Shown here: positions 9,001 through 12,000 of the stretch, piece after piece
How positions within the stretch are numbered: the first letter of the stretch is position 1
Layout of the letters: each line of letters starts with the position of its first letter
Source: a virus
Lineage: Duplodnaviria; Heunggongvirae; Uroviricota; Caudoviricetes
IMG/VR virus record: IMGVR_UViG_2622736468_000002
Strand: one strand, 5' to 3'
Length of the DNA stretch: 46,428 nt
Position numbers: made by a program

Positions 9001-12000
9001 TCGATCTTGCAGAACGTCTGGCCAATTTTTTTAAGGGTGAAATCAGCGAAATGCAGATTCTTTATCCGGCACGTTTTCAATCTAGCCAAAACCAGAATGG
9101 GTTTAAACCACAGGAACAGGAGGTAAGCCGTGGGTAATCATCACTGGAAAGTGGAAAAACAGCCTGAGTGGTACGTGAAAGCTGTCAGAAAAACTATCGC
9201 GGCGTTGCCGGGGGGTTACGCTGAAGCTGCTGAGTGGCTGGATGTAACAGAGAACGCATTATTCAACCGCCTTCGTGCTGAACCGCCCCGGGAATCCTGG
9301 AGACTAAACTTCCTGAGAAAGAGGTAAACAGGATGACTAAAAATACTCGTTTTTCCCCCGAAGTCCGTCAACGGGCAGTCCGTATGGTTCTGGAAAGTCA
9401 GAGCGAATATGACTCACAATGGGCGACAATTTGTTCCATTGCTCCAAAGATTGGCTGTACGCCGGAGACTCTGCGTGTCTGGGTTCGCCAGCATGAGCGG
9501 GATACCGGGGGCGGTGATGGAGGGCTCACCACCGCTGAACGTCAGCGTCTGAAAGAGCTGGAGCGTGAAAATCGTGAACTGCGCCGCAGTAACGATATCC
9601 TTCGCCAGGCTTCCGCTTATTTTGCGAAGGCGGAGTTCGACCGCCTCTGGAAAAAATGATGCCACTGCTGGATAAGCTGCGTGAGCAGTACGGGGTCGGA
9701 CCGCTATGCAGCGAACTGCATATTGCCCCGTCAACGTATTACCACTGTCAGCAACAGCGACATCATCCGGATAAACGCAGTGCCCGTGCGCAGCGCGATG
9801 ACTGGCTGAAGAAAGAGATACAGCGCGTATACGATGAAAATCACAAGGTATACGGTGTGCGTAAAGTCTGGCGTCAGTTGTTACGGGAAGGTATCAGAGT
9901 GGCCAGATGCACTGTGGCACGTCTCATGGCGGTTATGGGACTTGCCGGTGTTCTCCGGGGTAAAAAGGTCCGTACGACCATCAGCCGGAAAGCCGTTGCC
10001 GCAGGCGACCGCGTAAACCGTCAGTTCGTGGCAGAACGACCTGACCAGCTGTGGGTGGCTGATTTTACTTACGTCAGCACATGGCAGGGCTTCGTCTATG
10101 TGGCGTTCATCATTGATGTGTTTGCCGGATACATCGTGGGGTGGCGGGTCTCATCGTCCATGGAAACGACATTCGTGCTGGATGCACTGGAGCAGGCGTT
10201 ATGGGCCCGTCGACCGTCCGGCACGGTCCATCACAGTGATAAAGGTTCTCAGTATGTATCGCTGGCCTACACACAGCGGCTTAAGGAAGCCGGATTACTG
10301 GCATCAACAGGAAGTACAGGCGACTCGTATGACAACGCGATGGCGGAGAGCATCAATGGTCTTTACAAAGCGGAGGTAATACACCGTAAGAGCTGGAAAA
10401 ACCGGACAGAAGTGGAGCTGGCCACACTCACGTGGGTGGACTGGTATAACAATCGACGATTGCTGGAAAGGCTGGGCCATACTCCTCCGGCAGAAGCAGA
10501 AAAAGCTTATTATGCTTCCATCGGAAACGATGATCTGGCAGCCTGAGTTCACAGATAAAACACTCTCCAGGAAACCCGGGGCGGTTCAGGGCGTGTGGCT
10601 CACCGTTGTGAAGGAGATACACGCAGACATTTCCCGCGCCTGACTGAGAGAGCACAGGAGCCGGAACCACAACCAGTTCGTGAAACCAGACCTGTGCGCA
10701 ATTTCTGTGTCGGCACTAACGACCCGCAGGTGATTTTGTGCCTGACTCGCCAGGCGGAAGAACTGGAGTCCAGGGGCTTATTCCGTCGAGCTGCAACGGT
10801 GTGGATGGAGGCATTCCGTGAAAGCCACTCCCAGCCAGAACGAAACAATTTTCTGGCGCATCGTGAGCGGTGCTTACGGAAAAGCAGCAAGCGCGCTGCA
10901 TCGGGTGAAGAGTGGTATCTGTCAGGGAATTACGTGGGGGCTTAATGAGTAATAAATATTGCCAGGCGCTGGTGGAGCTGCGGAACAAACCAGCCCATGA
11001 ACTGAAGGAAGTGGGCGATCAGTGGCGCACGCCGGACAACATTTTCTGGGGAATTAACACCCTGTTTGGCCCGTTTGTTCTGGATCTGTTCACTGATGGT
11101 GATAACGCCAAATGTGCCGCTTATTACACTGCGGAAGACAACGCGCTGGCGCATGACTGGTCTGAACGTCTTGCGGAGCTTAAAGGTGCTGCCTTTGGTA
11201 ATCCCCCGTACAGCCGCGCCAGTCAGCATGAGGGGCAATACATCACCGGCATGCGTTACATCATGAAACATGCCAGTGCCATGCGTGATAAAGGCGGGCG
11301 CTATGTTTTCCTGATCAAAGCTGCCACCAGCGAAGTGTGGTGGCCGGAAGATGCAGATCATATTGCTTTTATTCGCGGGCGTATTGGTTTTGAACTGCCT
11401 GCCTGGTTTATCCCGAAAGACGAAAAGCAGGTGCCAACAGGTGCTTTCTTCGCTGGTGCTATTGCTGTTTTCGACAAGACCTGGAAGGGACCGGCAATCA
11501 GCTACATAGGGCGCGATGAACTTGAGGCATGTGGTGAGGCGTTTCTGGCGCAGGTTCGCCAGCAGGCGGAAAAACTGGTCAGGGAGATGGCGGCATGACG
11601 ACGTTAACTCAATGCCAGCAGCAGGTGCTGGATATGCTGATTTCTTATCAGAAAGAACGTGGCTTCCCGCCAACCAATCAGGAGGTGGCAACCATGCTGG
11701 GATACCGTTCGGTGAATGCAGCGGTGGAGCATCTTCGCGCACTGGAGAAAAAAGGCGTCATCACGATAAAGCGTGGCGTGGCCCGGGGGATAACGCTTCA
11801 TACTGCGATGAAGGACGACGACAGCGAGGCGGTCGGGATTATCCGCGCACTGCTTGCCGGTGAGGAAAACGCAAGGCTGCGTGCAACCCACTGGTTACAT
11901 GAGAGGGGCCTGAAAGTATGAAGCTAATACTGCCTTTTCCGCCCAGCGTGAACACGTACTGGCGACACCCCAACAAAGGGGCGTTTGCTGGTAAGAGCCT

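Follow-up and report, generated by a model that had tools for sequence, protein, structure and literature searches.

We found that the stretch of DNA analysed here (the window, 46,428 nucleotides; IMG/VR record IMGVR_UViG_2622736468_000002) is very probably a resident prophage of Escherichia coli MRE600, which adjoins yecE/yecN and has an IS629-associated deletion in its early-right operon. The window was identical to the MRE600 sequence CP014197.1 across all 19,327 bp compared. In addition, an orthologous prophage without the IS was found in E. coli FORC_069 (locus L008) at the same yecE/yecN site, with the gene order cmoA-yecN-DUF72-int, and its identity to window positions 1-14316 was 99.8-99.95%. 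The main text of the MRE600 genome paper makes zero mention of phage, prophage, IS629, insertion sequence or transposase. Thus, the IS629 deletion in this prophage appears to be undescribed. The features of the window concerned are the following.

8087..8779, minus strand: cI-type repressor, intact, with HTH and S24 peptidase, 230 aa (Pfam Peptidase_S24, 5.8e-19; HTH_26/HTH_3)
8877..9137, plus strand: HTH gene at the cro position, intact, 86 aa (Pfam HTH_3, 1.1e-8)
9130..9278, plus strand: remnant of ymfL (CII-like regulator), reduced to its first 149 nt out of 558 (PHROG 101; alignment to L008 ends precisely at 9278)
9279..10588, plus strand (transposase): complete IS629 (IS3 family), 1,310 bp, without target-site duplication (assigned by identity, inverted repeats and length)
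9333..9659, plus strand: IS629 orfA, 108 aa (NCBIfam IS3 transposase N-terminal part; Pfam HTH_Tnp_1)
9656..10546, plus strand: IS629 orfB, 296 aa, with DDE/rve domain (NCBIfam transpos_IS3, 314.9 bits against a cut-off of 160 bits; Pfam rve)
10589..10945, plus strand: what is left of yfdN (PerC family), in its original frame: codons 47-164 with the stop codon (Pfam PerC, 1.3e-8; PHROG 1324/2608)
10942..11598, plus strand: phage Dam methyltransferase, intact (Pfam Dam, 9.9e-46)
14291..14677, plus strand: antiterminator Q (Pfam Phage_antitermQ, 1.5e-47)

The cI-type repressor gene lies inside a block of 99.95% identity that is common to the window and FORC_069, and the cro-position gene is located as are the cro-like genes of the related loci L001-L004 and L008. 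The Dam methyltransferase gene is the first complete gene rightward of the deletion, and the antiterminator Q served as the right-hand bound of the early region scanned for replication genes. The repressor, Q, the lysis genes and most of the morphogenesis genes are still present in the prophage. The late region is lambda-like and includes a Q-tRNA-esterase segment without stx, which we take to be of the kind found in Stx phages. As for other changes in the window, an IS1 flanked by a perfect 9-bp repeat was observed in yfdR, and the terminase is possibly frameshifted at a run of G at about 25155.

The IS629 element and its two neighbouring genes

The initial annotation had placed an IS629 of exactly 1310 bp at 9279..10588, and the coordinates, length, ends and identity that we obtained all agree with it. 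The element shared 99.5% identity over its full length (1-1310) with copies annotated as 'IS3 family IS629' in Stx-phage records. Its terminal inverted repeats have the imperfect TG...CA form, with 23 matches in the first 25 positions (TGAACCGCCCCGGG.../...CCCGGGGCGGTTCA). Furthermore, orfA and orfB overlap, and both are intact. IS1203 is presumably a near-identical variant of IS629.

The element had also been described as lacking a direct repeat of 3-4 bp. Indeed, the left flank ends with ...ccttcgtgc and the right flank begins with gggcgtgt..., so that TGC on one side faces GGG on the other. Three IS629-type copies in related prophages do carry duplications, namely GAT in IAI39, AAT in SW070919 and TCAG in strain 113. 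IS629 makes duplications of 3-4 bp, and in O157 genomes a duplication was present at only 21 of 47 sites (PMC3271280). Because so many IS629 copies are without one, a missing duplication alone is weak evidence for a deletion. Meanwhile, the adjacent deletion of 2,721 bp described below explains why the duplication is missing, and its lack therefore casts no doubt on the assignment to IS629.

The genes on either side of IS629 are truncated. On the left, the gene at the cII position had been reported as cut off by IS629, and we found that it is ymfL, which ends after nt 149 of 558. The reading frame of this remnant continues into IS629 to 9327 and thus gives a 65-aa fusion product. This product matched PHROG 101 'CII-like transcriptional activator' (1.2e-15) and had no Pfam match; by alignment, only residues 1-50 of YmfL are kept. 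The full-length ymfL relatives match Pfam Phage_CP76 and NCBIfam YmfL (168 bits, cut-off 90).

On the right side, the alignment to L008 resumes exactly at window position 10589, which equals L008 13143 and nt 139 of yfdN. The DNA there had been said to start directly in a PerC-like gene. The family assignment was correct, since the 116-aa ORF of the remnant holds a PerC domain (PF06069; 35.4 bits at residues 52-103, cut-off 22.6). However, the gene is truncated at its 5' end and not intact: the first 138 of 495 nt are gone, so that the 164-aa protein lacks its N-terminal 46 residues. In addition, positions 8000-11200 were scanned for promoters and terminators; about as many hits were obtained as in shuffled sequence, and the scan gave no usable information on read-through across IS629.

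The deleted segment and its intact counterparts

Alignment to the intact prophage of FORC_069, a contemporary relative that stands for the reference state and not for the actual ancestor, showed that the missing segment is 2,721 bp long. There were three alignment blocks, namely window 1-4906 (99.92%), window 5675-9278 (99.95%; L008 6818-10421) and window 10589-14316 (99.81%; L008 13143-16870). FORC_069 has 2,721 bp (L008 10422-13142) in place of IS629, both breakpoints coincide with the IS ends, and the identity is 100% for 150 bp beside each breakpoint. Furthermore, L001, L002, SfIV, PhiR29_1 and IAI39 all run on across both breakpoints. Thus, the deletion is proven by the comparison with relatives, which shows the exact 2,721 bp that are missing, and not by the mere lack of a duplication. 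The following parts, all contained in L008 10422-13142, are missing from the window.

The last 409 nt of ymfL (CII-like), that is, its 3' three-quarters
A Rha-family gene of 381 codons
A small ORF of 74 codons
An HTH_36 'O-like' replication initiator of 272 codons, with an iteron-like array
The first 138 nt (46 codons) of yfdN (PerC family)

One could argue that nothing was deleted and that a CII-like gene lies naturally beside a PerC-like gene in a phage with another replication mode, in which case a simple IS insertion would have had its duplication mutated away. Such an arrangement would fit the general mosaicism of lambdoid phages and the many IS629 copies without recognisable duplication. 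However, both genes break off exactly at the IS629 ends, with only the first 149 of the 558 nt of ymfL present and yfdN (495 nt) starting at nt 139, and a prophage that is 99.9% identical on either side keeps the intervening 2,721 bp. In addition, the ymfL-side and yfdN-side flanks were adjacent in none of 5,426 complete E. coli genomes, 2,722 of which had at least one flank, and SfIV and PhiR29_1 have the O-like gene between them. An alternative replication gene was not found in the window either. On the basis of the genome counts and the exact FORC_069 breakpoints, natural adjacency of ymfL and yfdN was rejected, and we consider it extremely improbable.

IS elements present in many copies are well known to make assemblies collapse, and two IS629 copies around an intact replication module might have been collapsed into one. 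However, CP014197.1 (4.83-Mb contig) and a second assembly, GCA_901482365.1 (3.55-Mb contig), agree over 20.2 kb except for a single base, the junction is unchanged, and the 65-aa ymfL-IS fusion ORF is encoded in both. Furthermore, contigs of this length indicate that the assembly reads were long enough for a repeat of 1.3 kb. An assembly artefact was thus rejected, because two separate assemblies have the same junction, and its chance of being true is very small.

Loss of the replication initiator

It had been proposed that an IS-mediated deletion or recombination removed the replication module. This is in agreement with FORC_069, where the initiator and the iterons both lie in the 2,721 bp. 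The O-like protein of L001 matched PHROG 270 'replication initiation protein' (1.7e-87), that of L002 matched PHROG 391 'replication initiation O-like' (4e-135), and both matched Pfam HTH_36. Furthermore, the records of the phages SfII, SfIV and PhiR29_1 name this gene 'DNA replication protein O' or 'primosomal protein'.

In the window, we scanned 62 ORFs against Pfam and PHROGs, and no initiator, helicase, loader or primase was detected. These ORFs were those between cro and Q and 44 more, which cover nearly all large ORFs elsewhere in the window. Thus, the reported absence of replication genes between cro and Q was confirmed by the scans, and no such genes were found in the scanned ORFs of the rest of the prophage.

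In L001, L002, L003 (SfIV), L004 (PhiR29_1), L007 and L008, yfdN comes immediately after the O-like gene, and the only families that yfdN matches are PerC/regulator families. Neither the relatives nor the isolated phages SfIV and PhiR29_1 have an annotated gene of P, DnaC or DnaB type. Since there is a single O-like gene in these relatives, only one replication gene was lost. The earlier wording 'O/P absent' therefore holds for the initiator, which is lost, but O/P is the wrong model for a phage whose relatives have a single O-like HTH_36 gene and no annotated P. For the same reason, the lack of P should not be scored as a defect: the phage family to which SfII, SfIV and PhiR29_1 belong has no annotated loader of P type and just one O-like initiator.

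The O-like gene of FORC_069 (L008 12190-13008) has five iteron-like repeats of 15 bp arrayed within it (L008 12455-12559), and similar arrays lie inside the O-like genes of L001 (7623-7727) and L002 (7205-7327). Since these repeats are placed within the O-like coding sequence, the array is probably the origin, by analogy with the lambda-type iterons inside O. In the window, the iteron consensus of either relative type gave single matches at chance level, and the early region was without a tandem array. With the initiator and the probable origin both gone, a replication defect is predicted; from the gene content we infer that the prophage would be unable to start its own replication after induction.

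In lambda, the O initiator gene carries the ori-lambda iterons internally. The initiator gene of the relatives is similar to lambda O in that it is located to the right of cII and bears 4-7 iteron-like repeats midway along the coding sequence. However, its product is an HTH_36 initiator that matches the PHROG 'O-like'/'primosomal'/'DnaD-like' families and has no match to the Pfam lambda-O family. Unlike O/P of lambda, the initiator of the relatives and of SfIV and PhiR29_1 is not followed by a gene of P, DnaC or DnaB type, and the window is without the whole module.

The early regions of the window and of the phages SfII, SfIV and PhiR29_1 share one gene order, which in K-12 cryptic-prophage names is yfdR-yfdQ-yfdP...cI, cro, ymfL, (small genes), O-like, yfdN. 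After yfdN, the early region of this type continues with dam, lexA-like, rusA, kilA-N, DUF968 and Q. Compared with these phages, the window lacks everything from the 3' part of ymfL through the 5' part of yfdN, it has the IS1 in yfdR, and its late region differs in being lambda-like.

Possible routes of the deletion and its meaning

Deletions adjoining IS629 range from a few nt up to >40 kb (PMC9943667), and the usual causes of absent duplications are adjacent deletion and inter-IS recombination (PMC11708052). In our opinion, adjacent deletion by a single IS629 is the most likely route, and inter-IS recombination is almost as likely. We infer the following order of events. First, a single IS629 would have inserted in ymfL (target TGC or GTGC) or in yfdN (target GGG or GGGC). 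Then, a transposase-initiated break at one IS629 end would have been rejoined to a site 2.7 kb away, and the resulting adjacent deletion would have removed one copy of the target duplication. Transposition in the IS3 family is of the copy-out/paste-in type, a mechanism that gives no adjacent deletions on its own. Thus, the single-element route would need an accessory step, such as IEE-type end joining.

For the second route, two IS629 copies in the same orientation, one in ymfL with the duplication TGC and the other in yfdN with the duplication GGG, may have recombined in a RecA-dependent manner, with the loss of 2.7 kb and one IS. We regard this as a real possibility. The product would be a hybrid IS with collinear flanks and would equal the observed TGC-IS-GGG, and inter-IS recombination is a documented common source of missing duplications (PMC11708052). 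Furthermore, IS629 strikes the interval from ymfL to O repeatedly and in one orientation, for example in IAI39 (in ymfL, 15 bp downstream) and in SW070919 (in the Rha gene). However, IS629 would have had to insert twice, independently, within 2.7 kb of the same prophage, and the IS629 of the window has no internal marker to reveal a hybrid.

Progenitors were sought with junction queries and with exact-pattern scans for both hypothetical progenitor junctions. Among 5,426 E. coli genomes, species-representative genomes and metagenome contigs, none had IS629 simply inserted at one or the other breakpoint, and none had the double insertion. The junction queries matched only IAI39, in which the IS lies at a distance of 15 bp and is bordered by a GAT duplication of its own. 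The two routes would leave an identical product, and the sequence fits either. If another IS629 were seen with ...AGAGTGGG on its left or TGCAGATGG... on its right, this would mean that the segment was moved and not lost.

The deletion might also be non-neutral, which we consider unlikely. It would then be either a single-step IS movement that leaves no duplication and is coupled to deletion, as proposed by Ngan et al. 2024 (PMC11708052), or a selected 'grounding' event. The latter idea comes from the repeated hits of IS629 in the ymfL-to-O interval in one orientation (the window, IAI39 and SW070919). If it were true, the host would be spared lethal in-situ phage replication upon SOS induction, while the repressor, the truncated PerC-type regulator and the late genes would be retained.

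The loss linked to IS629 is ordinary and well-understood prophage decay. The MRE600 prophage should be scored as defective, given the missing initiator and probable origin, the IS1 in yfdR and the possibly frameshifted terminase. This is mildly reassuring, as MRE600 is grown in bulk for the preparation of ribosomes and tRNA. The case resembles IS629 in O157 with respect to the element, its home in a lambdoid prophage (where IS629 usually resides), the deletion from the IS end and the lack of a duplication, as in many O157 copies; it differs in that the host is the laboratory strain MRE600 and not EHEC. Thus, it provides a clean IS629-associated deletion outside EHEC, resolved to the base pair, with a 99.9%-identical IS-free reference at the same site in FORC_069.

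The defective prophage pool of O157 Sakai and the K-12 cryptic prophages consist of multiply mutated prophages. Like them, the window has IS insertions and early-gene deletions and keeps many other genes. Unlike in those prophages, the decay in the window is recent and limited, with 99.8-99.95% identity to an IS-free counterpart over 14 kb.

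IS629 and its junctions

We found a complete IS629 of 1,310 bp, identified by its inverted repeats, its ORFs and its identity to annotated copies.

9279-10588, IS629, complete
9333-9659, orfA, intact
9656-10546, orfB, intact, IS3 transposase (NCBIfam; 314.9 bits, cut-off 160)
9130-9327, 65-aa ORF running from ymfL into IS629

The element ends in imperfect inverted repeats (TGAACCGCCCCGGG... and ...CCCGGGGCGGTTCA), with 23 matches in the first 25 positions, and over its full length it is 99.5% identical to "IS3 family IS629" elements annotated in Stx-phage records. Thus, the element is IS629 with the length and the intact ends given in the initial annotation. 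The lack of a 3-4 bp direct repeat was also seen again in the flanks (...ccttcgtgc, IS, gggcgtgt...). The missing repeat by itself would be weak evidence, because among 47 IS629 sites of O157 genomes only 21 have a target repeat (PMC3271280).

The 65-aa ORF is specific to the ymfL-IS junction, and an exact-sequence look-up placed it on two contigs only. Of these, the E. coli MRE600 chromosome (CP014197.1) shows no difference from the window in the 19,327 bp that were compared, and GCA_901482365.1 has a single mismatch in 20.2 kb. Agreement of the two assemblies makes an assembly artefact improbable. The window opens with the integrase gene, which adjoins a DUF72 gene and a MAPEG gene; E. coli FORC_069 has this MAPEG gene too, under the name yecN, with cmoA after it.

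The segment replaced by IS629

The FORC_069 prophage (L008) occupies the same chromosomal site (cmoA-yecN-DUF72-int) without the IS. Its alignment with the window gave three blocks.

Window 1-4906, L008 1921-6826, 99.92% identity
Window 5675-9278, L008 6818-10421, 99.95% identity
Window 10589-14316, L008 13143-16870, 99.81% identity

The first gap is accounted for by an inserted IS1 and its 9-bp duplication. In the second, L008 10422-13142 is replaced in the window by IS629, and both breakpoints fall at the IS629 ends. Comparison with this intact relative therefore defines a missing segment of 2,721 bp, which contains the following.

ymfL, nt 150-558
Rha-family gene, 381 codons
ORF of 74 codons
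"Helix-turn-helix domain-containing protein" gene, 272 codons
yfdN, nt 1-138

The gene at the cII position, ymfL, is indeed cut off by the IS, as first described. The DNA to the right was said to begin directly in a PerC-like gene; yfdN does lie at this junction, but it is 5'-truncated. Both breakpoints are uninterrupted in five further relatives (the SW070919, strain 113 and IAI39 prophages and phages SfIV and PhiR29_1). The ymfL-yfdN insert differs among relatives, and in strain 113 its 1,823 bp hold a DUF4222 gene and an HTH-protein allele of 313 codons. Furthermore, the two flanks were adjacent in none of 5,426 complete E. coli genomes, at least one flank being present in 2,722, so a natural ymfL-yfdN junction was not seen.

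The replacement of 2,721 bp by one IS629 supports the earlier proposal that an IS-mediated deletion or recombination removed the replication module, since the segment holds the initiator gene. Two routes would yield the same product, and the route can be inferred as follows. First, one IS629 would have entered ymfL (target TGC or GTGC) or yfdN (target GGG or GGGC), and a deletion would then have run from one IS629 end to a site 2.7 kb off. Such adjacent deletions, from a few nt to >40 kb, have been tied to the IS629 transposase and the IEE protein (PMC9943667). Second, two same-orientation copies, one in ymfL and one in yfdN, could have recombined. This is credible because the same interval carries independent same-orientation copies in IAI39 and SW070919. 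The IS629-type copies in related prophages, each of 1,310 bp, are as follows.

IAI39, 6166-7475, in ymfL, 15 bp downstream of the window site, duplication GAT
SW070919, 5724-7033, in the Rha gene between ymfL and the O-like gene, duplication AAT
Strain 113, 3001-4310, upstream of cI, duplication TCAG

All three point the same way with respect to the rightward operon, and IS629-type copies may have a regional preference for these early regions. Both adjacent deletion and inter-IS recombination are frequent causes of missing duplications (PMC11708052), and a search for a progenitor of either kind found none. We lean slightly to adjacent deletion.

Lost replication functions and retained genes

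The ymfL product is a CII-like regulator (Pfam Phage_CP76; NCBIfam YmfL, 168 bits, cut-off 90; PHROG 101). The lost HTH protein has an HTH_36 domain, and its alleles in relatives match PHROG 391 "replication initiation O-like" (4e-135, strain 113) and PHROG 270 "replication initiation protein" (1.7e-87, SW070919), as well as other families named "primosomal" and "DnaD-like". The 313-aa allele shares 98.4-99.7% identity with genes of SfII, SfIV, PhiR29_1, Kati and other phages that carry the annotation "DNA replication protein O" or "primosomal protein". In addition, an array of iteron-like repeats lies midway along the coding sequence of each O-like allele.

L008 12455-12559, five 15-bp GTGCAGGAGATTCAC-type repeats, 21-24 bp apart, four of strict and one of relaxed pattern
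L001 (SW070919) 7623-7727, repeats 21-24 bp apart, matching the L008 array
L002 (strain 113) 7205-7327, about seven 15-bp TCAAAATCTGACNCG repeats

The origin of lambda sits inside gene O, and by analogy the array is a probable origin.

All relatives, the isolated phages SfIV and PhiR29_1 among them, have yfdN directly 3' of the O-like gene; the two genes together lie at L008 12190-13499, SfIV 5001-6433 and PhiR29_1 5001-6433, and yfdN matches PerC/regulator families only. Thus, as judged from gene content, this phage family has no lambda-P, DnaC or DnaB-type gene. The reported absence of "O/P" should therefore be read as that of one O-like initiator with its probable origin, since relatives carry a single O-like gene followed by yfdN. 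Intact members, including SfIV and PhiR29_1, have one replication gene only, the HTH_36 O-like gene with internal iterons, and their annotations show no evident means of loading the host helicase.

We scanned 62 window ORFs, covering the early regions and nearly all large late-region ORFs.

Left arm: excisionase and genes of unknown function
cro to Q: only the yfdN remnant, Dam, a LexA-like protein, RusA, a KilA-N protein and DUF968
Q to right end: AraC-like gene, esterase, lysis genes, lambda-like head and tail genes

None of the 62 matched a replication family, either between cro and Q, in agreement with the first reading, or elsewhere in the prophage. Both iteron consensuses occurred in the window at chance level only, and its early region has no tandem array. 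Loss of the initiator (in trans) and of the origin (in cis) should leave the prophage incapable of replication on induction, as predicted from its sequence. No damage is apparent in the S24 peptidase-type repressor, cro, Q, the lysis genes or most of the head and tail genes; therefore, induction could still harm the cell, and it should give no normal burst.

Overall, we confirm the original observation and support its interpretation, with corrections on the yfdN truncation and on O/P. The early module is of the SfII/SfIV/PhiR29 type, and the process is the familiar IS-associated deletion behind E. coli prophage decay and diversification. The terms "phage", "prophage", "IS629", "insertion sequence" and "transposase" do not occur in the main text of the MRE600 genome paper. 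Thus, this instance seems undescribed, while its kind is already known.

Other lesions and the late region

Two further lesions were found.

4907-5674, IS1, 768 bp, in yfdR (5'-deoxynucleotidase); InsA/InsB ORFs 4962-5659
23700-25684, large terminase, split into ORFs 23700-25223 and 25211-25684

The IS1 is flanked by a perfect 9-bp target duplication, AACAGGAGG, and is missing from the FORC_069 prophage, which is elsewhere 99.9% identical; it is a simple insertion. The terminase is split by the loss of 1 bp from a G-run (G6 to G5) at about 25155, relative to 99.9%-identical prophages encoding a 642-aa protein. This could be another inactivating mutation or an error of long-read assembly at a homopolymer. 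Together, the IS1 insertion and the frameshift are consistent with a decaying prophage.

The near-identity to the FORC_069 prophage (99.8-99.9%) stops abruptly at 14316, 25 nt into Q (14291-14677), and beyond it only one short stretch matches (15451-15795). This position looks like a mosaic recombination joint, past which both the Q allele and the late region differ. Several features lie downstream of Q.

15980/16106-16693, AraC-family gene
16721-16970, three tRNA genes (Met-CAT, Arg-TCG, Arg-TCT)
17459-19420, 653-aa DUF1737/SASA esterase

This layout (15980-19420) is that of the surroundings of stx in Stx phages; no stx genes were found in this region. Finally, the tail-fibre gene (43228-44361) contains a 63-bp tandem repeat (44107-44282; 2.8 copies, 78% matches) that encodes Gly-rich, collagen-like repeats.
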